From Candidatus Nomurabacteria bacterium (GTDB lineage Bacteria > Patescibacteriota > Minisyncoccia > Phycocordibacterales > UBA9973), in contig CP064973.1 of the NCBI GenBank assembly GCA_016699365.1, positions 64,195 through 128,194 of the forward strand: a stretch of DNA of 64,000 bases, in the 5' to 3' direction. Positions 16,994 through 63,532 of this stretch are shown here, in pieces. The notes beneath the pieces were generated by a model that saw nothing but the letters and a program-made list of their open reading frames with translations, made no database searches and was not told where the DNA came from. The translations under genes and the position numbers were made by a program. How positions within the stretch are numbered: the first letter of the stretch is position 1; every line of letters starts with the position of its first letter.

Positions 16994-17000
16994 AAAAATA

Positions 17001-17033
17001 AAAACGGAATTTTTTAAAATTCCGTTTTTTTAT
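17001..17033. terminator. bidirectional rho-independent terminator
   Basis: aacggaatttt-ttaa-aaattccgtt hairpin flanked by A/T runs, between convergent genes. Confidence 0.6.
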
Positions 17034-19279
17034 TTAGCAACTTTTAACGCTTCGTCAAATTTTATAGAAAGTAATTTTGATCCTCCGTCAGACCCAATCG
17101 TAACTCCATAGAGTATATTTGCACGAGACATCGTCTCTCTGTTGTGAGTAACAACAATCAACTGAGAATACTTGGCCAAGGACTCAATCATGTCACCATA
17201 TTTTCTACTATTTGCTTCATCGAGCGCTGCATCTGTTTCGTCCAGTACCAAGAATGGCGGTGGGTTAACTTGAGACATCGCAAACAAGAGCGCGATAGAA
17301 GTGAGTGATCTTTCTCCTCCTGAGAGCATATGAAGGTCTTTAACTTTTTTATGTGGCAATGCTACGTTTATCTCGATTCCCCTCTCAAACAAAAGCTCAG
17401 AGCTAGAATCTTCACCTACAACCTCTTCCTTGTATTCATCTTCAGATTCACGAACACCTTTGTGTTCGACCATTATACGCAAGAAAGCAGTTCCTCCGCC
17501 GAACATTAATGCAAAAAACTTTTGAAATTGTTCATTTATCTTCTCAATTCCGGAATTAAACTCTTCATCCAAAGTATCACGTAAATCACGTATTAGAGTC
17601 TTTAATTCTAAAATACTACTTTCTAGGTCAGCCAATTCTTTTGCTAAAAATTGATCCCTAGAAACTGTTTCTTCATATTCTTTCAAAATATCTCCACCAG
17701 CTCCACCGCCAACGTCTTCTATTTTTATCTTTAGTCTCTCTATTCTCCTTCGTACATCTTCTTGGTCTATCCTACTAACCTCTCTACCGATAGATGGATC
17801 ATAAGCACTAGCTCCAAAACCAATCAAAACCTCAGCTTCTTTTAATTCATCTTGAAAAGAAACCTCCTGACTCTTTAGTGTTTCTTCTTGTACCAAAAGT
17901 ATATCTCGAGCTCCTATCAATTCAGTTTCTTTTTGTTTTAATTCATAGCGTTCTTTTTCACCTTCCCTATCTTCTCTTTCTTTGTTTCTAAGTATATTAC
18001 GCGCTTCTTCTAAGATAGATTCTTTTTTAGATCTCTCTTCGGATAAATTCTTCTCTAAGACAGACAGTTCATCATAAGAAATTTCCAAAATTTTTATCTC
18101 CTCAATCAAATCATTGTTTTTTGTATTTGTATTTTCACCAGAAGAAACAAAAGACTGGAGTCGATTTTTTAAAGACAGCAAAGCTTCGACAATCTCTTCT
18201 CTGGATTGTCTTTGTATAGCTTCATCAATAGAACTAGAAACCTCATCGAGCATTTTTCTAACCTCAGATTGTGATATCAACAAATCTTCTGTGTTCTCTT
18301 TTGTTTGTGATAAAGATTTCTTTGCTTCAAGTAGTCCCTCTAGTCGAGCAATCTTTCTAATTATTTCATCTCTCTCTGTATTTATATCAAGTAAAGCTTT
18401 CTGTGCTTCTCTTACAGCAATCTCATCATCGTTTGTTTTCTTACTATCTGGAGTACTAAGTAGCCCGAGAGAATGTGTAATCTTATCTAGCTCAGCAGCT
18501 ATTGTAGATTTTTTTATTTGAACCCTGCTTCTTTCTCTGTCTAGGTAAAAAGCTTCATTTGCAAAATACTCTGCATATAAACCAGAAAGTTCTACGCGCA
18601 TTTCTTTTGCTTTTTCAATTTTTTCAACTTGTTTCTTAAGAAAATGTAAGTGCGGACCTATCTCGCGACGCAATGTTGCTATCTCCTTCATATTAAGAGA
18701 AGTTCTTTCTAATTTTCTTTCACTTTCTCTTATGCGGTATTGATATATTTTTAAACCAAGAGCATCTTCAATCATTGCCCTTCTGTCTTTTGAAGAAGAG
18801 TTAAGTATTCGATCAGCCTCACCTTGTGAGATCATGTGGTGACCCGAGCTACCTATGTGCACACTAGAGAGCAATTCAACTATATCTTTCAGTCTTACAT
18901 CTGTACCATTTATCTTGTATACATTCTGCCCATCAGAATATACTTCACGAGATATAGAGACTTCATCAAAAAGCAGCTCTGGCGCACCTTCTTTGTTTGC
19001 AAAAGAAAATATTTTTTTAGTATTATCAAAAACAATCTCTACAGAAGCACGATTTGGGGCAGAGAGACCTTTCGATCCCTTGAAAATCAAATCTGTGCCA
19101 GATTTTCCGCGCATTGATTTTATAGATTGTTCACCTAAAACGAAGCGAAGAGATTCAACTACGTTTGACTTACCTGATCCGTTTGGTCCAACTATGGCTG
19201 TAACTGGCGCCGAAAACTCAAGAACTGTTTTCTTGGCAAAAGATTTAAATCCAGTTAATTCAATACGTTTAAGATACAT
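17030..19279 (-). CDS. smc: SMC-family ATPase (short chromosome-segregation Smc-like protein)
   Basis: 749 aa. Walker A (GPNGSGKSN), long coiled-coil middle, C-terminal ABC signature and Walker B (LSGGERSLTSIALLFA...FLVLDETDAALD). Adjacent to rnc as in many bacteria. Much shorter than canonical ~1180-aa Smc. Confidence 0.65.
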   Translation of the reverse strand: MYLKRIELTGFKSFAKKTVLEFSAPVTAIVGPNGSGKSNVVESLRFVLGEQSIKSMRGKSGTDLIFKGSKGLSAPNRASVEIVFDNTKKIFSFANKEGAPELLFDEVSISREVYSDGQNVYKINGTDVRLKDIVELLSSVHIGSSGHHMISQGEADRILNSSSKDRRAMIEDALGLKIYQYRIRESERKLERTSLNMKEIATLRREIGPHLHFLKKQVEKIEKAKEMRVELSGLYAEYFANEAFYLDRERSRVQIKKSTIAAELDKITHSLGLLSTPDSKKTNDDEIAVREAQKALLDINTERDEIIRKIARLEGLLEAKKSLSQTKENTEDLLISQSEVRKMLDEVSSSIDEAIQRQSREEIVEALLSLKNRLQSFVSSGENTNTKNNDLIEEIKILEISYDELSVLEKNLSEERSKKESILEEARNILRNKEREDREGEKERYELKQKETELIGARDILLVQEETLKSQEVSFQDELKEAEVLIGFGASAYDPSIGREVSRIDQEDVRRRIERLKIKIEDVGGGAGGDILKEYEETVSRDQFLAKELADLESSILELKTLIRDLRDTLDEEFNSGIEKINEQFQKFFALMFGGGTAFLRIMVEHKGVRESEDEYKEEVVGEDSSSELLFERGIEINVALPHKKVKDLHMLSGGERSLTSIALLFAMSQVNPPPFLVLDETDAALDEANSRKYGDMIESLAKYSQLIVVTHNRETMSRANILYGVTIGSDGGSKLLSIKFDEALKVAK

Positions 19280-19306: not shown

Positions 19307-20032
19307 TTAATCAAGCCAATTCTTAACTTTCAATGCTTCAGTTGCTGCTTTTTGTTCTGCTTCTTGTTTAGACTTACCTTTACCTTGGGCTATCAAATCT
19401 GCTCCAAAAAATATACCAGTAGTAAAATGCTTGTCGTGATCTGGGCCTGCTTCTGATAATACCTTATAAGAAGGCGTAACTCCTACAAATTCTTGGGCTT
19501 TTTCTTGGACAAGACTCTTAGGATCTCTCCAGGATTTATTTTTTACAATCTCATCAGTCAAAGGAAATAGTGTCTTAGAGACAAATAATTCAGATTTTTC
19601 GTATCCTTGGTCTAAGTATACCGCACCTAAAAAAGCCTCATATGTGTTTGCCAATATGTATTGTCTAGCCTTACCGATATCTTTTGCTTCACCTTTAGAT
19701 AACAATAGAAATTCTCCCATACCTATCGAAGTAGCAACCTCAGCAATTGTCACAGCATTCACCAAAGCCGCCCTAAAAGCTGTTAGCTCCCCTTCGTTGT
19801 GTTGTGAAAACTTTTTATACAAATAATCTGTAATGATAAGCTCGAGTACTGCGTCGCCTAAAAACTCCAACCTTTCATTGTGAGAAAAACTTAGATTTGG
19901 ATTTTCATTTAGATATGAGCGATGGACAAAAGCCTGCATTAGCAAATTTTTATCTTTGAAAGTCATTCCGACTTTCTTTTCAAAAAGAGAGAAGTCAACC
20001 ATATATTTATTGAAGTATGAATTATGAATCAA
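19307..20032 (-). CDS. rnc: ribonuclease III
   Basis: 241 aa. RNase III signature NERLEFLGDAVLEL, plus a dsRBD at the C-terminus. Confidence 0.9.
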   Translation of the reverse strand: MIHNSYFNKYMVDFSLFEKKVGMTFKDKNLLMQAFVHRSYLNENPNLSFSHNERLEFLGDAVLELIITDYLYKKFSQHNEGELTAFRAALVNAVTIAEVATSIGMGEFLLLSKGEAKDIGKARQYILANTYEAFLGAVYLDQGYEKSELFVSKTLFPLTDEIVKNKSWRDPKSLVQEKAQEFVGVTPSYKVLSEAGPDHDKHFTTGIFFGADLIAQGKGKSKQEAEQKAATEALKVKNWLD

Positions 20033-20083: not shown

Positions 20084-20980
20084 TTATTTTGTAATTTTTT
20101 CAATAGACTTAGCAAGTAGAGGCAGGATATCATCATATGTTTTGATATCTCCTATCTGACTTAAACTAAACCATTTTGCATCATCAAGTCCACCACTTGA
20201 AGTCAGCGCAAGCTCCTGATACGGTGCTTCAACCAAGAAGTAATGAACTTCTTTTCTGATCTTTCCTTTCTCAGGATGCGAAGCAATATACTCATTTTGC
20301 CCTAGCTTTTCTTTGACTACTATAGGCAATCCTACCTCGTCTTTAATTTCTCGAACAACAGCAACAGCCTCGTCTTCACCGTCCTCTACACCACCCTTAG
20401 ATAGAGTCCAGTAACCAAAAACATCATGTACAAGTGCAAAATATACTGCACCTTCGTGGCGAGCATATATAACAGCACCTGCCTTTTTTTCAGTAGGTAA
20501 TTTTGTTATATCAACAGGTGTGTCATCTTTTTTCTTTTTAGAAGTTTGATCCTTTCCCGGTTCTCCTATTTCTTTGTATACAGCACCTAAAACTCCGTTT
20601 ACAAATTTACTAGATGTTTCACCTCCAAAAGCTTTCGCAAGTTCAATTGCTTCATTGATTGCTACTTTAGGCGGGACTTCTTCTCTGTTACCAAATAAGA
20701 GCTCAGCTAAACCAAGTCTTAGAATATTTCTATCCACAACTGATATTTTATCAATAGGCCAATCTGGAGCAGCTTTAGTAATTATTTCATCTATTATTGA
20801 ACGCTTCTTTAGCACAAGTTCAGCTAGATTTTCAATAAAAGTAAAATCATCTAAGCCTGGACCAAATTCGCTTTCATTGCGCTTCAATATAGGGACGATT
20901 ATGTCGTCTTGTTTACCGTTGAAATCCCACTCAAAGAGTGATTGGAGAACTATTGATCTTGAAAGGTGCCTGTTTGCCAT
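20084..20980 (-). CDS. nusB: NusB antitermination factor fused to a C-terminal NUDIX hydrolase domain
   Basis: Residues ~1-140 match NusB (…PPKVAINEAIELAKAFGGETSSKFVNGVLGAVYKEIGEP). The C-terminal ~150 aa carry a Nudix box (SKGGVEDGEDEAVAVVREIKDEVG). Confidence 0.75.
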   Translation of the reverse strand: MANRHLSRSIVLQSLFEWDFNGKQDDIIVPILKRNESEFGPGLDDFTFIENLAELVLKKRSIIDEIITKAAPDWPIDKISVVDRNILRLGLAELLFGNREEVPPKVAINEAIELAKAFGGETSSKFVNGVLGAVYKEIGEPGKDQTSKKKKDDTPVDITKLPTEKKAGAVIYARHEGAVYFALVHDVFGYWTLSKGGVEDGEDEAVAVVREIKDEVGLPIVVKEKLGQNEYIASHPEKGKIRKEVHYFLVEAPYQELALTSSGGLDDAKWFSLSQIGDIKTYDDILPLLAKSIEKITK

Positions 20981-21041: not shown

Positions 21042-21263
21042 CTATGCTTTCTTTGTTTTTGCCATTTTCTCGGCTTTCTTTATGGATTTTTTGTTAACCT
21101 CTAGTACCTTTCTACCTCTGTACATACCAGTTGTGGTGCATACATGGTGACGAAGGTGAGGAACTCCAGTTTCTGTATCAACAGAGAAAATGCGCGCTTT
21201 TAAAGCGTGATGTGAACGTCTGTTGGCGGTATGTGACCGCGTATGTCTCATTCGGACTACCAT
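21042..21263 (-). CDS. rpmF: 50S ribosomal protein L32
   Basis: MVVRMRHTRSHTANRRSHHALKA...GVPHLRHHVCTTTGMYRGRKV matches the L32 pattern. Confidence 0.8.
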   Translation of the reverse strand: MVVRMRHTRSHTANRRSHHALKARIFSVDTETGVPHLRHHVCTTTGMYRGRKVLEVNKKSIKKAEKMAKTKKA

Positions 21264-21293: not shown

Positions 21294-21950
21294 TTACAAG
21301 ACTTTTTTCAAAAATGTCTTCCTGTGTATGTCTGTAATACCATATCTATATATAGCCTCATAGTGAGCTTTTGTCCCATACCCTTTATGCATATAAAAAT
21401 TGTATTTTGGGTATATTTTTGAAACCCTATCCATATATCTATCACGTGTGACCTTGGCACATATGGAAGCTAGAGCAATTGCCGGCTCTTTTTCGTCCCC
21501 TTTTATAATTGTTTTCTGACGGGCAAACTCTTTTGGCGCCTTGAGGCCACCATCGAGTAATACTATCTTATAATCTGAAGTCTTTAGTTTATAAATAGAA
21601 TTTGAAAGAGCTCTTTTGATGGCAGGAACTATACCTATAGAATCAATTTTAGCCGCAGATACGAGCGTTACCTTATAGTCACACTTCCCTTCTTTTTTCC
21701 ATTTTTTAATTACTTCAAACCATTTTTCCCGTTCTGCGTGAGACAACTTTTTTGAGTCTCGTAGTTTTAAATTGGTTTTTTTAACTAAAATTTTAAAATT
21801 CTTGTTTTCAATATCAAGCCGAAATACTCCAACTGCTACTGGTCCTGCTATCGGCCCTCTCCCTACTTCATCGATGCCGAAAATAGATTGCATGTAGTTT
21901 ATTATAGCAAAATAAAAAATCAGGTTTTTACCTGATTTTAAAATTATCAA
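21294..21950 (-). CDS. rnhB: ribonuclease HII
   Basis: GIDEVGRGPIAGPVAVGV motif. True start is probably the internal Met (MQSIFGIDEVGRG, near 21891). Confidence 0.85.
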   Translation of the reverse strand: MIILKSGKNLIFYFAIINYMQSIFGIDEVGRGPIAGPVAVGVFRLDIENKNFKILVKKTNLKLRDSKKLSHAEREKWFEVIKKWKKEGKCDYKVTLVSAAKIDSIGIVPAIKRALSNSIYKLKTSDYKIVLLDGGLKAPKEFARQKTIIKGDEKEPAIALASICAKVTRDRYMDRVSKIYPKYNFYMHKGYGTKAHYEAIYRYGITDIHRKTFLKKVL

Positions 21951-21958
21951 TTACGAAT

Positions 21959-22627
21959 CTATTCAAAGAAAAGACTCCCTAGCTTCATAAAAATATCCCT
22001 TATGATACTTCTACCAGAATAAAAGTAAGAATCCTCAGTAATAGTAGTCCATGGCTCGATTTCCGGCTGATAGCTGTTCGAGACAACTTTCACTGATAAA
22101 ACGAATGCTTGTGGCGAAGTTATATCTCCTACCACGATTTCGCATGAACCATTGTCTCTACTATAAAAACTGTATGACATGGTTATAGCTCCATCAGTTT
22201 CCTTTTCAACCGTAAGCCCCTCATGACTAAAAGTATCAACGCTTTTGAGTAACTTTTGCAGCTTTGGAAGTATTTTGGCGCATGGCATTTCAATAATTCC
22301 TCCCTTTTCCGGAAAAACATTTACTGTAATATTTGCCATATCTAACACATGAATTTCATTTTCCGCTCTTTTGCGAAAACCTTCTTTCTTGGCCAACCTT
22401 GCTTTTTCCGCTATCGAATTTTCTTCTTCCTTCTTTTTTCGATTGTTATCAGATTCAATTTTTTCTGCTTCTTTCAGCTTATCGAGATCTAACCCTAAGA
22501 TAGAGATTTCTTTTTCGAAACCTTCTACTTCCTCAGGCTTTTCATTTGCCAAGGCTCGCAGCACAAGCTTTTTAAGTCGATTAATTTCCTTTCGGATATC
22601 TGAGGCTGTTTTTACTTTAGCTTCCAT
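21959..22627 (-). CDS. hypothetical protein (N-terminal coiled-coil)
   Basis: 222-aa ORF, Lys/Glu-rich N-terminus, no motif. Confidence 0.4.
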   Translation of the reverse strand: MEAKVKTASDIRKEINRLKKLVLRALANEKPEEVEGFEKEISILGLDLDKLKEAEKIESDNNRKKKEEENSIAEKARLAKKEGFRKRAENEIHVLDMANITVNVFPEKGGIIEMPCAKILPKLQKLLKSVDTFSHEGLTVEKETDGAITMSYSFYSRDNGSCEIVVGDITSPQAFVLSVKVVSNSYQPEIEPWTTITEDSYFYSGRSIIRDIFMKLGSLFFE

Positions 22628-22724
22628 TTAGTATATTTATTTTTAGGTGAAATTATTTTTCGAACTATACTCTTAGATATCAATATTGTCAAATATAAAT
22701 CACCCTACAGTCGCAGGGTGATTT

Positions 22725-23045
22725 TCACTTTATAACTCTATCGTTTCTACGTAGAGTTTTATATTTCTTTTTATGATTCAAGTAATTGTTTCTAAACTTC
22801 GTCTGCTTGCCGTAAAACCTAGGCTCGCGGTCAAAAAAACCTATCAACAGTTCAGGAACCTGAATAATTTCAATAGGAATTTTATTTCTAAATTCAAATT
22901 CCTTTTTCGACACTTCTTGAGTGTTGTCGATAACAATCATTTCTACCCCCACTTCTCTGTGCATCATTTCTATAAGAGCAGCAGTGGTGGTCCCTGTACC
23001 AATGTGGCCACATACAATAATTCCTATATCTCGTCTTTCTGACAT
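22725..23045 (-). CDS. hypothetical protein (possibly a gene fragment)
   Basis: 106-aa ORF starting GIIVCGHIGTGTTTAAL. Downstream hairpin terminator at about 22692-22722. Confidence 0.3.
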   Translation of the reverse strand: MSERRDIGIIVCGHIGTGTTTAALIEMMHREVGVEMIVIDNTQEVSKKEFEFRNKIPIEIIQVPELLIGFFDREPRFYGKQTKFRNNYLNHKKKYKTLRRNDRVIK

Positions 23046-23083
23046 AAATTACAATTTACTTTATTATAACAGAAATATATATT

Positions 23084-26000
23084 TTGTCAAAAATTAAAGA
23101 CATCTGTTATAATCTACGCATGTCATTCGTCCATCTGCATACACACTCACACTATTCCCTACTCGACGGCCTAACAAAAATAGATGATCTAGTAAAAACC
23201 GCAAAAGCACATGGGATGAATGCTGTTGCACTTACTGATCACGGAAGTATGTATGGCGCAATAGAATTCTATAAAGCTTGTAAAAAGGAAGGTATCAAAC
23301 CCATTATTGGAGTAGAGGCATACATCGCTGAGCGCACACGCTTCGACAAAGATCCGGGTCTTGATAGTAAGCGATATCATCTGACTCTTCTTGCTAAAAA
23401 CGAAAAAGGTTATCGAAACTTGATGAAGCTTGTATCTCGCGCAAACCTGGAAGGTTTTTATTACAAGCCTCGAATGGACAAAGATCTTCTAAAAGAATTT
23501 GGAGAAGGAATAATCTGCCTATCTGGCTGCCCAGGAAGTGAATTCGTAAATTTAATAAAAAATAAACACTTAGATAGAGCTAAGGATCTTTTAAAATACT
23601 ATATAGATACTTTCGGTAGAGAAAATGTTTTTGTTGAAGTGATGAAACATGATGATGTTGAATGGTACACACCACTAATAAAAGACATTGTGCAAATAGC
23701 AGAAGATATGGATTTACCAATTGTCGGTACATGGGATTCACATTATTTACACCAAGATGATGCCGAAGCCCAAGACACATTGGTAGCAATAAACACTGGA
23801 AGTGAAGTTGGAGATAGTTCCATGAGTATGAAGAACGGGGATTATTCTTTTATTTCTGATTCGAGAGCAAGAGAAATATTTCGCGATATACCAGGAGCTT
23901 ATGATAATACTGCAAAAGTAGCTGACATGGTAGACATAGAAATATCTCTTGGTGAATGGGTTTTCCCAAAATATGAAATCCCAGAAGGAACAACATATGA
24001 CGAAGAACTTAGAAGAGTTACATATGAAGGCTTCGCTTCACGTAACATCGAACAGACTCCAGAGATGGTAGAGCGCGTAGAGTATGAACTTGAAATAATA
24101 AAAAACAAAGGTTATTCACCATACTTTTTGGTTGTGTCTGACCTACTTCGCTATGCTCGAGAAAACAATATTATATCTACAACCAGAGGATCTGCTGCTG
24201 GATCTTTTGTGTCTTATCTAAATTTCATTACCACAGTAGATCCAATTCACTTCAAATTACCCTTTGAGAGATTTTTAAATCCCTTCCGTCCTTCCCCTCC
24301 CGATATTGATATGGATATCGCCGACAACAGACGCGATGACATGATTAGCTACGCAAAACAAAAATACGGAACTGCAAATGTTGCGCAAATTGGTACATTT
24401 GGAACCATGATGGCACGCGGATCTGTGCGCGATGTGGCACGCGCATTGGGATATTCATATTCCATCGGTGACAGACTGTCTAAAATGATCCCTATGGGCT
24501 CCCAGGGTATGCCTATGACAATAGACAAGGCTTTTGAGCTAGTACCTGAATTAAAATCTGCATATGAAAACGAAAGAGAAACAAAAGAAATAATCGACTT
24601 AGCAAAAAAAATGGAAGGCTGCGCAAGGCATATATCAGTGCATGCTGCAGGTGTGGTCGTTGCACCAACTCCAGTCGAAGATTTTTCACCAATACAATTT
24701 GATCCAAAAGGCGACAAAATTATCACACAATACGACATGTACTCTATCGAAGAAGCAGGTCTACTGAAATTGGATTTCTTGGGTATTAGAAACCTGGCAA
24801 TTTTAGGAGATGCAATAGAACGTATAAAAAAAATACGTGGGATAACTATAGATCTCGAAAAAATACCTTACGACGATAAAAAAACTTTTGAAATGCTAGC
24901 CCGCGGAGAAACAGTCGGAGTTTTCCAGTTATCTGGAGATGGTATGACAGTGTATGTAAAAGATCTAAAACCAACTTGCGTAGACGATCTTAACGCAATG
25001 GTGGCCCTGTATCGACCAGGCCCGATGGAAACAATTCCAGAATACATTAAACGCAAAAATAATCCTGAGCTTATTTCATACCCTGATCCTAGAATGGAAA
25101 AATATCTAAAGGCATCTTATGGATTGATAGTTTACCAAGACGACCTTCTCTTCTCTGCGCTCGAACTTGCTGGATACAACTGGGAAGAAGCTGATAAATT
25201 CCGCAAAGCTGTGGGTAAAAAAATTCCCGCAGAGATGGCGGCCCAAAAACAAAAACTTATAAAAGGTATCGTTGCTAACGGTCAAACACAAAAATTTGCT
25301 GAAACCCTATGGAAACTTTTTGAACCATTCCAGGCGTATGGATTCAACAAAGCTCATGCTGCAAGTTATGGGAAAGTTGCATATCAAACAGCTTATATGA
25401 AAGCCAACTACCCTGCTGAATACATGTCTTCTATCCTAACCGCAGAAAGTGATGACTTAGAAAAAGTAGCGGAAGTTATCGACGAATGTAAAAGAATGGG
25501 ATTCGTAGTACTCCCTCCAGATATAAATGAAAGTTTTTCTGACTTCACTGTTGTAATGGAAAACGGAAAAATAAGTAACAAAATTCGTTTTGGTCTAAAT
25601 AGTATAAAAAACTTTGGAGAAGAAATAGGCAAAGCAATTATTCACGACAGAAAAGAAAAGGGACCTTTTACAAGCTTGGCCAACTTCTTGGAACGTGTTC
25701 ATCATCGCAGTCTAAACAAAAAATCTCTAGAGGCCCTAATCAAATCTGGGGCTATGGATATATATGGAGACAGAGGAGAACTTCTAGGTAATATGGAAAT
25801 TTTGCTTGCATACAACAAACAAACAGAAAGTAACAAAGGCCAAGAATCTCTGTTTGGCGGAATGGACTACAACAGTAGTGCAAAGTTAAATCTACACGAA
25901 GCATCTAAAATAGAAGAAGTAGACAAGCTGGCTTGGGAAAAAGAATTTTTAGGCCTATATATTTCTGGACACCCTTTGGAAAAATGTTCTCACTTAATTG

Positions 26001-59254: not shown

Positions 59255-59297
59255 CGAGTTTTCTCGATGTTTTTATTTTTAGAAATATATACTTTGT

Positions 59298-59402
59298 TCT
59301 GGCGACTACCTACTTTTGCCCTAAGACTATCATCGGCACAACAGCGCTTAACTTCTTTGTTCGGAATGGAAAAAGGTGTGACCACTGCGTCAAATCACCA
59401 GA
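59298..59402 (-). rRNA. rrf: 5S ribosomal RNA
   Basis: Minus strand TCTGGTGATTTGACGCAGTGGTCACACC...CCGAACAAAGAAGTTAAGCGCTGTTGTGCCGATGATAGT...GTCGCCAGA aligns with bacterial 5S (CCGAAC...GAAGTGAAAC...GCCGATGGTAGT). Ends pair as helix I. Confidence 0.8.
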
Positions 59403-59937
59403 ACAAAACATATATTTTTTCTATGGAACGAAATGTGTATTGAAAAACACCTCGGCAGGTACGACGGTACCGTACGGAGAAAATTTCTAGCAAGAAATTT
59501 TTGTGTGTTTTGAAATATACATGAGTGTATATTGTATGTGATTTTCAGATTTCCTAATAGGAATCGAATAATTAGTACTTCTCGGCTCAACACATTACTG
59601 TGCGTACACCTAAAGCCTATCAACGTGATCATCTCTCACGGTTCTCAAACGATTCCTTATCTTAGGGGGGGCTTCCTTCTTAGATGCTTTCAGAAGTTAT
59701 CCCTTCCCGACATAGCTACCGAGCAGTCCATTTGGTAATAGAGCTCGTACACCAGAGGTCAGTCCACTCCGGTCCTCTCGTACTAGGAGCAGCGCCCTTC
59801 AAGAATCAACGAGCGCAGTAGATAGGAGACCAACCTGTCTCACGACGGTTTGAACCCAGCTCGCGTACCTTTTTAATTAGCGAACAGCTAAACCCTTGGC
59901 AGCTTCTCCACCGCCAGGATAAGGTGAGCCGACATCG

Positions 59938-60299
59938 CTGTCGATTTATCTCAAGAAAAATAAAAAACTTTTCAATCTTTCTTGAGAGTCTTCTGTCACC
60001 AGAAGGATCGGACTATATCTTCATCCTTTCATATAAATATGATTAGGAGATTGGCGTTTAGTCTCTGAGGATTCTTCATGTCTTTTGTAAAAAAGATTTA
60101 GAAGTCTTTCCTGCTGATTGTCTCAACATGCATAATTTTTTAAAACCACTCAGTATATTCTTTCGAATTGCTGTTTGGGTATATGCATTTAAAAGAGAGT
60201 TCCAGCATTTGGCCAATTTTTTGTATCTTTTATTTTGCTATCTACAACAAATATAAAAGACGGCTAATAATATCTCTATCATGGCACCCCGATATGTTA
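59938..60299 (-). mobile_element. group I intron (362 nt, ORF-less) in 23S rRNA domain V (E. coli ~2500 region)
   Basis: Exon sequence ...GGAGTTCGGCACCT | [insert] | CGATGTCGGCTC. 5' exon ends in U, insert ends in G. The insert contains S-element AAGATATAGTCC (plus 60010-60021, rc) and R-like TCAGAGACTAAACG. Confidence 0.75.
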
Positions 60300-60521
60300 A
60301 GGTGCCGAACTCCGCCGTCGATATGAACTCTTAGGCGGAACTAGCCTGTTATCCCCGGAGTAGCTTCTATCCGTTAATCTTCGGCCGCATCTAATGCGTA
60401 CCATCGGTTCACTAGGTTCTGCTTTCGCACCTGCTCGAGATGTCCCTCTTACAGTCAAGCCAGCTTGTGCCCTTACACTATCGGCACGATTTCCATACGC
60501 GCCTAGCTGACCTTAATAAAC

Positions 60522-60562
<41 letters not shown>

Positions 60563-60869
60563 ACCCACCAGATACTGTCTCTCTGTGTTTTTGCCACAGG
60601 GATTAGAATATACATGTCACAAGAATGGTATTTCACTGACGAGTATTACACAGCCGAGACCGTGCACATAACCTCTCCCATCTATGCTACGCAGGTAAAA
60701 CGTATATTCAATATCAAGTTGTAGTAAAGCTTCCGGGGTCTTTTCGTCTATCTGCGCTTAACCGGCATCTTCACCGGTATTGTATTTTCACCGAGCTATT
60801 CCCCGAGACAGTTCTCCAGTCATTACACCATTCGTGCGCGTCGGAACTTACCCGACAAGGTATTTCGCT

Positions 60870-61075
60870 CTTCTATACCTAAGAAGGACTCTATCTTCAT
60901 CCTCTCTTTCGAGGTGGGATGCTTGACGCTGGTCTCTCGTTAGTCAAGTTTGGACCACATATCATTACTGACATGTAGGTAGCTTTCGAATGATTTAATA
61001 ATTTTTTAATTTAATTGTTTACCTTTTTCTACAACAGTCCCAGTCCTTTCACATACAACCGAAGTCATATGCGAA
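60870..61075 (-). mobile_element. small group I-like intron (206 nt, ORF-less) in 23S rRNA at the GGTCCTAAGGT|AGCGAAAT site (E. coli ~1917 region)
   Basis: Conserved exon junction GGTCCTAAGGT ... AGCGAAATaCCTTGTCGGGTAAGTTCCGAC interrupted by a 206-nt AT-rich insert containing AAGATAGAGTCC (S-like) and GAGAGACCAGCG (R-like). Exon ends in U, insert ends in G. Confidence 0.6.
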
Positions 61076-61110
<35 letters not shown>

Positions 61111-61961
61111 CAGGGCTTATATCAGTCAGCTTCTCCCTACCCGAAGGCAGAGAGAAACCGCCGATATTTGACCTTCTCGCATTGGTCAGGTGTCACCCCC
61201 TATACATCCTCTTACGAGTTCGCAGGGAGCTGTGTTTTTGGTAAACAGTTGCCAGAGATACTTTCGCTGCGCCCCCCATAATGGTGAACTACAATATAAA
61301 TACTGAAGTCACCATTATGGGGGGAAGCCTTATTCCGAAGTTACGGCTGCTTTTTTGCCGAGTTCCTTGGGGAACACTCACTCGTTCGTCTTGGTCTTCT
61401 CGACCCGATCACCTGTGTTGGTTTGCGGTACGGTTTCTGTTCTGTTATGCTTAGAAATTTTTCTTGGAAGCGTGCTTTGTAAAATTTACATGGGCGAACC
61501 CACATATTTATGCTCTACTTGGATGTCGCTTTTACGCCAGTTTCCGGATTTGCCTAGAAACCACCCTCATAGCACAAACAGAAATCCAATAATCTGCTCT
61601 ACATACTACCCTCCGTCCTTCCATCGCACAGAAAAGAAGTCATGGAATATTAACCATGTGTCCATCACGTTCGGCTATCGCCATCTGCTTAGGACCGACT
61701 AACCCTTGGCTGATCAACATCGCCAAGGAAACCTTGATCTTTCGACGTGCAGGGATCTCACCTGCATTGCGGTTACTTGTGCCAACATTCTTACTTCGAC
61801 ACGCTCCAGCATGGGTCACCCCTTTGCCTTCAACGCAGAGTCGAATACTCTCCTACCACTCCATATTTCCTCAGAAATATGAAATCCTCAAATTCGGTAC
61901 AATGCTTAGCCCCGATTATCTGCGGCGCGGAATCTCTTGATGAGTGAGCTGTTACGCTTTC

Positions 61962-61993
<32 letters not shown>

Positions 61994-62572
61994 TCATTGT
62001 CGAAGAAATTCCACATCCTTGGTTTGCACTTAACATTGATTTAGGGACCTTAATTAGAGATCTGGGCTGTTTCCCTTTTTACTGACGGAGCTTCGCCCCC
62101 GTAGTCTAACTGCTGCGCTTTTAACTCTTGGTATTCGGAGTTTGATAGATGTCGCGAGATTGCTCCCTGTCGAAATCTTCCAGTGCTCTACCCCCAAGAG
62201 GAACGCACAACGCTAGCCCTAAAGCTATTTCGGAGAGAACCAGCTATTACCAGGTTCGATTAGCTTTTCACTCCAACCCACAAGTCATCCGAGAGTGTTA
62301 AACGGCTCACCGGTTCGGGCCTCCAGTGTGATTTCTCACACCTTCACCCTGCTCATGGGTAGCTCACCTGGCTTCGGGTCTTATGTATACTACCAATTAC
62401 GCGCTATTAACACTTGGTTTCCCTGCAGCTCCAGTCTTTTAAAACTTTAGCTAAGCAGCATACATAAACTCGTTGGCTCATTCTTCAATAGGCACGCCAT
62501 GGCGGACCCGAAGGCCCGCTCTGACTCTTTGTAAACATATGGTTTCAGGTCTATTTCACTGTCCTTTCGGAC

Positions 62573-62611
<39 letters not shown>

Positions 62612-63365
62612 ATCTCTACATGTATTTAGCCTTGCCGGTTAGTTCCGGCGGATTCCCTCAAGCTATTCGTGTCTTGAGGTACTCAAGAATGACAACAAAA
62701 GAGATATATTAATTTCGTGTACCGGGCTATCACCGTCTTTGGCGTTGCTTTCCAACAACTTCTACTATCAATACATTTTGTAACTCTTTACGTAATAAAA
62801 CGTCGTTATCACCTTACAACCCCGATTAATAATATCTTGCGACATTATCATTCGGTTTGGGCTCTTTCCATTTCGCTCGCCGCTACTTCGGAAATTTTGT
62901 CCTTACGGACTTTGTTTTCTTTTCCTCCAGGTACTGAGATGTTTCACTTCCCTGGGTATACTCTTTTTGATTAATCAAAAAGTTATTGAGGTTTACTCAA
63001 TAGGGTTTCCCCATTCGGAGATCTTCGGATATATCGGTTGCTAGGCACCTCCCCGAAGCTTATCGCAGCCATGCTACGTCCTTCATCGCCATGTAGAGTC
63101 AAGGCATCCACCATATGCTCTTAATTTCCTATTAGGAAATCTAAAAACCACATACTCACTAAATACTCTCTCCGGAATATTTAGTGTTTTGAATTCATAC
63201 TAAAACCAAAATCCAACCGCTTGGATAATATCAATATCTAGTATGAATTCACTCTGTTTACGACACGACTTAAAAGACCCCATGTTCTAGATAACCTAGA
63301 ACAAAAAGATTGTATGCCGTAACAGAATTCAGTTTTCAATGAGTAATCGTCCGGTAAATTTTTGA

Positions 63366-63392
63366 CTAAAAAAACCGCCATTTGGCGGGCCA
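63366..63392 (-). terminator. rho-independent terminator upstream of the 23S promoter region
   Basis: Minus strand GCCCGCCAAATGGCGG hairpin followed by TTTTTTT. Confidence 0.5.
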
Positions 63393-63532
63393 AGCTAAAA
63401 CAAAAGAGTTTTAGAATCCCCGCTTAGACTTTGTTTTGTTAGTTATATTCATAACAGTACAAAGAGTATATAGGAACCAAAATCCAATGTCAAGCTTTTT
63501 CTTGTAATATTCTGAGAGTATTAAAATATAAT

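Follow-up and report, generated by a model that had tools for sequence, protein, structure and literature searches.

A gene that joins nusB to a Nudix domain lies on the minus strand at positions 20084..20980 of a 64,000-nt stretch of the Candidatus Nomurabacteria bacterium contig CP064973.1 (hereafter the window). It is a single uninterrupted open reading frame (ORF) with an ATG start, 298 codons and a stop. A preliminary description of this DNA had read it as one protein of 298 amino acids (aa) with an N-terminal NusB half and a C-terminal Nudix half, and profile searches bear this out: Pfam places NusB (PF01029) at residues 7-136 (E 5.5e-31, 108.1 bits, cut-off 23.1) and NUDIX (PF00293) at residues 167-278 (E 5.8e-14, 52.7 bits, cut-off 21.1), and the NCBIfam nusB equivalog TIGR01951 gives 122.1 bits, above its cut-off of 88.35. 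The NusB domain comprises residues 1-138 and seven helices (20567..20980), as delimited by TIGR01951, a NusB match in the PDB and an AlphaFold2 model. It is followed by a Lys-rich linker, GEPGKDQTSKKKKDDTPVDITKLPTE (residues 139-164, 20489..20566), which is predicted to be disordered and was defined from model confidence, conservation and substitution ratios, and by a Nudix domain that Pfam, Foldseek and phmmer assign to the diadenosine polyphosphate (ApnA) hydrolase type (residues 165-298, 20087..20488). Motif search and residue equivalences locate the Nudix box, GGVEDGEDEAVAVVREIKDEVGL, at residues 196-218 (20327..20395). The box matches GX5EX7REUXEEXGU except for one conservative change, an Asp in place of the first Glu of 'EE', and contains G196, E202, R210, E211, D214, E215, G217, and L218; it is complete in the window copy, as had been described. 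Translated in all six frames, the window shows no other Nudix-box motif and contains no second NusB-like or Nudix-box ORF.

The AlphaFold2 model, built from a 66-sequence alignment, has a mean predicted local distance difference test score (pLDDT) of 88 and a predicted template modelling score (pTM) of 0.56. Seven NusB helices at residues 2-138 and a Nudix α/β/α domain at residues 163-297 are both modelled at pLDDT of about 90, and the linker stretch 141-154 falls below 50 and is predicted to be disordered. In this model the two halves are joined by a flexible, basic tether of about 25 residues.

The N-terminal half matches a PDB NusB sequence at 1e-18, and its predicted structure has the all-helical NusB fold, with M. 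tuberculosis NusB (1eyv, Foldseek template modelling score (TMt) 0.83-0.85) and T. maritima NusB (1tzt, 0.81) among its Foldseek matches; NCBIfam models of RsmB match this half weakly. In the Aquifex NusB-NusE-BoxA structure, contacts to BoxA begin at the N-terminus of NusB and reach as far as α7, the conserved C-terminal helix, with F122 stacking on U8 of BoxA and E81 reading a base (PMC3177189). HMMER alignment to Aquifex NusB equates F126 of the window protein with F122 and D83 with E81. Over 66 fusions that share 31-85% identity, F126 and R8 are invariant and D83 and R4 are at least 90% conserved. Judged by these residues, the NusB half looks competent for BoxA binding. Because the linker begins directly after helix α7, the tether would emerge beside the BoxA-binding surface, as inferred from the Aquifex structure (PMC3177189).

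The fusion gene sits in a minus-strand cluster that the preliminary description had called a housekeeping neighbourhood of rnc, smc, rpmF, and rnhB, and Pfam confirms all four genes. The gene for ribosomal protein L32, rpmF (21042..21263; Ribosomal_L32p), lies directly upstream of the fusion, with rnhB, encoding RNase HII (21294..21950; RNase_HII), also upstream. Directly downstream is rnc, encoding RNase III (19307..20032; Ribonucleas_3_3, Ribonuclease_3, and dsrm), whose true start may be an ATG ten codons further in. An SMC-like gene (17030..19279; SMC_N) is the last of the cluster, which ends directly after it with a bidirectional, terminator-like hairpin of 13 bp read from the sequence (17000..17029). 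The cluster is preceded by strong promoter-like sites and has no convincing terminator inside it. The neighbourhood was surveyed in 80 species loci by tblastn with the window proteins, counts being restricted to loci with enough flank. rpmF is directly upstream of the fusion in 77 of 77 loci and rnc directly downstream in 74 of 74; smc follows rnc in most loci, and rnhB is upstream in a subset of close loci. A divergent locus (L089) has the order L32 - fusion - rnc - smc, another (L088) has RNase HII - small ORF - fusion, and a related contig (L086) has rpmF - nusB - rnc - rpsP, with a nusB of 140 aa that lacks the Nudix domain. The same order thus occurs both with the fusion and with plain nusB, and for this reason we regard the fusion gene as the organism's own nusB and the Nudix domain as a lineage-specific C-terminal addition in the nusB slot.

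The fusion is widespread. A protein identical to that of the window (P0001) has 13 member sequences, which come from several sources and lie on 20 contigs, and the best 120 database matches are all 296-308 aa long, with query coverage of at least 96% and both Pfam domains present. A scan of GTDB, with one genome per species, found at least 491 species genomes that encode a relative. The best 80 of these are all full-length matches; the preliminary description had proposed looking for the same fusion in related genomes, and it is there. An exhaustive search of 50%-identity representatives yielded 48 full-length fusion clusters, and in the 66-fusion alignment (A2; range 31-85%) the fusion persists to about 31% identity. 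Several fusions sit on contigs of 600-850 kb. Relative to a 97%-identical relative (L001), the ratio of non-synonymous to synonymous differences per site (pN/pS) is 0.04 for NusB, 0.05 for the linker, and 0.06 for Nudix, at a pS of 0.35-0.45; these ratios indicate that all three parts are maintained by selection. In the window's clade the linker is strongly conserved, with G139, E140, P141, G142, K143, K148, K150, D157, P162, and E164 invariant (alignment A1), and across distant clusters it is variable and gapped. The preliminary description had offered a sequencing-joined pair of genes as its alternative. The identical proteins on 20 contigs from several sources, the full-length fusions in the best 80 species genomes and in 48 clusters, and the purifying selection acting on the linker refute it, and we give an assembly or sequencing artefact practically no chance. 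The fusion is real, ancient, and kept by selection in a large branch of Patescibacteria.

Names on the matches are Candidatus Pacebacteria, Paceibacterota, Nomurabacteria, Minisyncoccia, or Patescibacteria. A profile search using divergent fusion members returned the same large clade, and a search with one divergent fusion (P0223) returned solely Patescibacteria or Paceibacterota names. Many records of metagenome-assembled genomes that carry the fusion (L001, L005, L006, and others) are titled "uncultured Candidatus Saccharibacteria" and one "Marinimicrobia" (P0362 is among such entries); these titles are probably automated mislabels or binning errors and do not reflect real occurrence in those groups.

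No genuine split version, with separate nusB and Nudix genes, was found among the fusion relatives inspected. An orthologous fusion on L082 (L082:542-1459, GCA_013565675.1) was called as two separate genes; we rejected it as a split, as a single in-frame TAA replaces the conserved Tyr of GAVYKE and the frame runs on into the linker. The TAA could be a sequencing error, a pseudogene mutation, or a read-through codon. Another candidate, P0211, was rejected as a stand-alone Nudix protein: it sits at the edge of a contig, a stop interrupts the read four codons in, and the residues upstream resemble the NusB tail. P0266 (L083:4001-4453) is a genuine stand-alone Nudix protein of 150 aa, 44% identical to the Nudix half. 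Its neighbours are integrase, DNA methylase, and Phage_rep_O genes, a mobile-element or phage context that might hint at the origin of the Nudix domain of the fusion. Four NusB relatives (P0254, P0269, P0263, and P0262) have C-terminal extensions of about 65-205 aa with no Pfam match, which the hidden Markov model of the fusion family hits at E of only 0.02-1. By eye these ends look Nudix-like, with a low-complexity Glu/Lys insert replacing the box region. Other NusB relatives of the same phylum (P0183, P0158, and P0252) carry plain Lys-rich or acidic tails, and one fusion (P0125) has an additional weak Rho_N-like tail (E 0.0015, below the cut-off).

The Nudix half resembles ApnA hydrolases. 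Its nearest solved structures in Foldseek are mycobacterial MutT1/Rv2985, a diadenosine polyphosphatase, the Aquifex Ap4A hydrolase (aq_158, TMt 0.86), and the Ap6A hydrolase Ndx1 of T. thermophilus (TMt 0.85), followed by the C. elegans and human Ap4A hydrolases and Chlamydia CT771; the Nudix domain of NrtR appears at rank 11. phmmer likewise finds Ndx1 (2.6e-8), the C. elegans Ap4A hydrolase (5e-7), and the Aquifex enzyme (1.2e-5). The NCBIfam RppH equivalogs score only 14-26 bits on the fusion against cut-offs of 116-259, RppH entries in the PDB are matched at E 0.27-0.57, and none of the 50 listed Foldseek matches is described as RppH. Because Foldseek and phmmer both rank ApnA hydrolases first, the comparisons of sequence and predicted structure assign the Nudix half to the ApnA (Ap4A/Ap6A) hydrolase type and not to the RppH family.

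Residue equivalences were taken from the printed pairwise alignments and the deposited sequences of human NUDT2. W191/T192 correspond to W32/T33 of the C. elegans enzyme, K195 to C. elegans K36 and human K42, E202 to C. elegans E43, R210/E211 to C. elegans R51/E52 and human R57/E58, D214/E215 to C. elegans E55/E56, H235 to C. elegans Y76 and human Y82, K243 to C. elegans K83 and human K89, and Y282 to C. elegans Y121 and human F128. In Ap4A hydrolases, the loop Lys (Pf K48/Hs K42) and Pf K94/Hs K89 lie at the P1 phosphate, and the loop-5 Tyr and a second Tyr/Phe stack on the adenine (PMC4734340). The substitution E58A abolishes the phosphatase activity of NUDT2 on 5'-triphosphate RNA (PPP-RNA) (PMC8616924); deposited NUDT2 E58A entries read RATQEE in place of the wild-type RETQEE.

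Conservation was scored in two sets, 120 close homologues (at least 63% identity) and the 48 diverse representatives of the 50% clusters. Residues assigned to the pocket are nearly invariant: W191 is present in 120/120 close and 45/48 diverse sequences, Lys or Arg at 195 in 120/120 and 47/48, and Tyr or Phe at 282 in 120/120 and 47/48; W270 is kept in 120/120 and 45/48. The catalytic residues are patchy. E211, the equivalent of NUDT2 E58, is present in 91/120 close and 11/48 diverse sequences (otherwise Ile, Val, or Ala in 26 and Lys in 8), E215 in 114/120 and 36/48, and the strict canonical set (E202, R210, E211, Glu or Asp at 214, and E215) in 67/120 and 9/48. Ranked by conservation among the 134 positions of the Nudix half, E211 is 113th in the diverse clusters and 72nd, about median, in the close clade. 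The strict set declines with distance from the window protein: it is found in 8 of 9 relatives at 72% identity or above, in about 50-55% of those at 63-72%, and in 14-29% below that. In the divergent fusion P0223, the box has decayed to KIMKEK, and a complete Nudix fold on a flexible tether is predicted (pLDDT 92.6). The preliminary description had named absence of the catalytic Glu residues as one observation that would refute it; they are present in the window protein, and E211 is absent from most of the family. On its residues, the window copy probably hydrolyses its ligand. Since E211 is kept in so few of the diverse clusters, catalysis cannot be what keeps the domain on NusB family-wide, and since the pocket residues are near-invariant while the equivalent of NUDT2 E58 is mostly replaced, the conserved function is most likely the binding of a nucleotide polyphosphate.

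A candidate RNA target of the NusB half can be read in the window. The leader of the 23S ribosomal RNA (rRNA) gene contains a boxA-like motif, TTACTCATTGAAAAC (63332..63346, minus strand), which resembles the rRNA boxA elements of E. coli, UGCUCUUUAACAA, and of Firmicutes, UGUUCUUUGAAAAC. Its core, TCWTTGAAAAC, occurs once in the window, in this leader and on the rRNA strand, which is suggestive of TTACTCATTGAAAAC being the likely target. The operon, all on the minus strand, has a promoter-like site, TTGACA-17-TATACT (63465..63493, 11/12 matches), the 23S gene (59553..63134) with a group I intron (59989..60265; Rfam RF00028, 80 bits), and a 5S rRNA gene that follows (59297..59402). There is no 16S gene upstream of the 23S gene, a protein gene ending at about 63567; because of this and the operon's own promoter, the rRNA genes appear to be unlinked. 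A terminator-like hairpin, CCGCCAAATGGCGG (63375..63388, minus strand), followed by seven T (T-run to about 63366), lies in the leader between the promoter and the boxA-like motif; it could act as an attenuator, mark where a small leader RNA ends, or have arisen by chance.

Returning to the gene cluster, the SMC-like protein has 749 aa, of which the SMC_N profile covers residues 2-731. Bacterial SMC proteins usually have about 1150-1200 aa, and a length so far below this implies a truncated coiled coil. Two ORFs without a Pfam match are co-oriented upstream of rnhB on the minus strand, one of 222 aa (21959..22627) and one of 106 aa (22725..23045), preceded by near-consensus promoter-like sites at 22692..22664 (11/12) and 23090..23063 (12/12), respectively. 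Across the 80 related loci, tblastn detected the 106-aa ORF in one and the 222-aa ORF in none.

We propose that nucleotide-polyphosphate binding at the antitermination complex is what keeps the Nudix domain on NusB, a reading that we hold tentatively, at somewhat less than an even chance, and that draws on the pattern of residue conservation. NusB is the factor that binds boxA in nascent rRNA with ribosomal protein S10 and seeds the antitermination complex. In the Patescibacteria branch, nusB has gained a C-terminal ApnA-type Nudix domain on a flexible, Lys-rich tether leaving α7. Across the family, selection keeps the residues of its presumed nucleotide-polyphosphate pocket, namely the Lys residues that bind phosphate, Trp and Thr of the loop, and the Tyr that stacks on the base, and does not keep the metal-binding and catalytic glutamates in like manner. 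The core job of the domain would be to bind a 5'-polyphosphate nucleotide beside boxA-bound NusB, the ligand being either an alarmone of the ApnA type in free form or the nascent leader's own 5' end, bearing a triphosphate or a dinucleoside polyphosphate (NpnN) cap. Where the box is intact, as in the window copy and its nearest relatives, the domain would still hydrolyse its ligand, an activity that would be dispensable elsewhere. The architecture, the orthology with nusB, the place in the operon, the purifying selection, the Nudix subfamily, and the pattern of conservation are established; we infer the class of ligand that the pocket accepts, the RNA 5' end or ApnA as that ligand, the activity of the window copy, and any effect on antitermination or rRNA processing. 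RNA 5' ends are credible ligands because the Ap4A hydrolase NUDT2 trims PPP-RNA (PMC8616924), RNA polymerase initiates with NpnN, and the Nudix enzyme RppH removes NpnN caps and hydrolyses ApnA (PMC7044304). It is possible, if doubtful, that the domain acts as a sensor or capture module, which would hold the 5'-polyphosphate or NpnN-capped leader end at the polymerase or bind an alarmone such as Ap4A, and would thereby couple antitermination or processing to the state of the 5' end or the level of the alarmone; hydrolysis would then merely reset the signal where the catalytic Glu is kept.

Several observations weigh against a role in binding. The loop-5 stacking Tyr (Hs Y82) is His235 in the window copy and is variable in distant clusters, and the pocket is assigned by homology to enzymes of only 22-29% identity. 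The glutamates and the Arg of the box other than E211 rank in the upper quartile of the 134 positions in the diverse clusters (E215 14th, E202 24th, and R210 31st): the box is eroded, not randomised, and metal-dependent chemistry may persist more widely than the strict count suggests. On a guide tree K195, W191, and Y282 change state 1-3 times, E211 no fewer than 27 times, and the strict box no fewer than 35 times; this contrast favours binding, but the tree is a rough one built by the unweighted pair group method with arithmetic mean. AlphaFold2 gives no confident packing of Nudix on NusB, and nothing positions the pocket relative to boxA. The context rpmF-nusB-rnc exists without a Nudix domain on L086 and is thus uninformative on the added domain.

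The preliminary description had suggested an RppH-like pyrophosphohydrolase, tethered to the antitermination complex, that would act on the 5' end of nascent RNA. In its fullest form, catalysis is the selected function: NusB would deliver an RNA 5'-pyrophosphohydrolase or decapping enzyme to boxA transcripts, and conversion of 5'-triphosphate or NpnN ends to 5'-monophosphate would trigger processing or decay of the leader. The complete box in the window protein and in 8 of the 9 relatives closest to it fits such an enzyme, as do the position of the gene directly upstream of rnc and a tether that exits NusB beside the boxA site, and the activities of NUDT2, a member of the same Ap4A-hydrolase subfamily, on PPP-RNA and of RppH on NpnN caps provide the chemistry. 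Yet the equivalent of NUDT2 E58 is replaced in 37 of the 48 diverse clusters and 29 of the 120 close relatives, the canonical set is strictly intact in just 9 and 67, respectively, and the catalytic residues reach no more than median conservation in the close clade too (E211 72nd of 134). RNase III cleavage already yields 5'-monophosphate on mature rRNA ends, so that it is not evident why a decapping activity would be needed. We consider this explanation unlikely. The RppH type itself is not borne out, given the weak matches to RppH models and structures; an RNA-decapping activity stays viable for this organism through the NUDT2 precedent (PMC8616924).

The domain might instead be a non-catalytic structural module, whose contacts with protein or RNA would stabilise NusB/S10, much as the phosphatase-fold protein SuhB does in E. 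coli, with the pocket a vestige. Erosion of the catalytic motif in a fold that is kept would be expected of such a module, non-enzymatic proteins of the Nudix fold are recognised (PMC5389931), and Foldseek lists the Nudix domain of NrtR among similar structures. The best-conserved residues (K195, W191/T192, K243, and Y282), however, are just those that in Ap4A hydrolases surround the phosphate and the base, and they form no obvious separate surface. The window's own lineage retains an intact box, and the model predicts no interface; a purely structural role is for these reasons quite unlikely. The flexible linker, its lack of sequence conservation among distant clusters, and the same absence of a predicted interface would suit an incidental fusion, in which a neighbouring housekeeping gene for an ApnA- or NTP-cleaning Nudix enzyme joined nusB, the halves work independently, and co-expression is the sole gain. 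Small genomes are prone to gene fusion. Against this stand the failure to find a genuine split version (the candidates being the in-frame TAA on L082 and the contig edge of P0211) and the persistence of the fusion over at least 491 species and to about 31% identity; moreover, a housekeeping enzyme domain should not repeatedly lose its catalytic Glu under purifying selection. An incidental fusion is therefore likewise quite unlikely in our view, and binding of a nucleotide polyphosphate at the antitermination complex is the reading that we retain.

NusB is a core, near-universal transcription factor that is normally a bare single domain. Full-text literature searches found no paper describing a NusB-Nudix fusion, and in public databases the fusion proteins are named only "transcription antitermination factor NusB", a name that hides the extra Nudix domain from users. 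Its long retention in a branch of the Candidate Phyla Radiation points to a link, absent from the papers searched, that would connect the antitermination complex either with the chemistry of RNA 5' ends (triphosphate or NpnN caps) or with ApnA alarmones. Since the protein is otherwise conserved and its box ranges naturally from intact to decayed, the family offers a means of separating binding from catalysis. If the domain is merely a co-expressed housekeeping enzyme, the result is a modest annotation correction.

Compared with known systems, the window protein is like NusB in its equivalog score, helical fold, BoxA-stacking Phe (F126), N-terminal Arg residues, and rpmF-nusB-rnc slot. Canonical NusB ends soon after helix α7, at about 130-150 aa, whereas the window protein continues into the linker and a 134-residue Nudix domain. 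With ApnA hydrolases this domain shares the W-T-x-x-K-G phosphate loop, a basic hairpin (K238/K240/K243), the C-terminal stacking aromatic Y282, and, in the window copy, the full box; those enzymes, however, occur by themselves or joined to a histidine phosphatase and retain the REx2EE glutamates, while the NusB-fusion family has mostly lost the 'RE' Glu. RppH, also of the Nudix fold, is the functional analogue behind the preliminary idea, and its family models and structures match the window protein weakly. SuhB, an enzyme-fold protein with a structural role in the E. coli rRNA antitermination complex (PMC6614801), and NrtR are precedents for an enzyme-fold domain that acts structurally or as a ligand sensor in the control of transcription. 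SuhB, however, is a protein of its own with another fold, and the partner of the Nudix domain in NrtR is a DNA-binding domain and not an RNA-binding elongation factor. The nearest precedent is RsmB/Sun, the 16S rRNA m5C967 methyltransferase, in which a NusB-like N-terminal domain is joined to a C-terminal enzyme that acts on rRNA. In RsmB the NusB-like domain belongs to the methyltransferase, whereas in the window protein the nusB orthologue itself forms the N-terminal half, with a Nudix domain as its partner.

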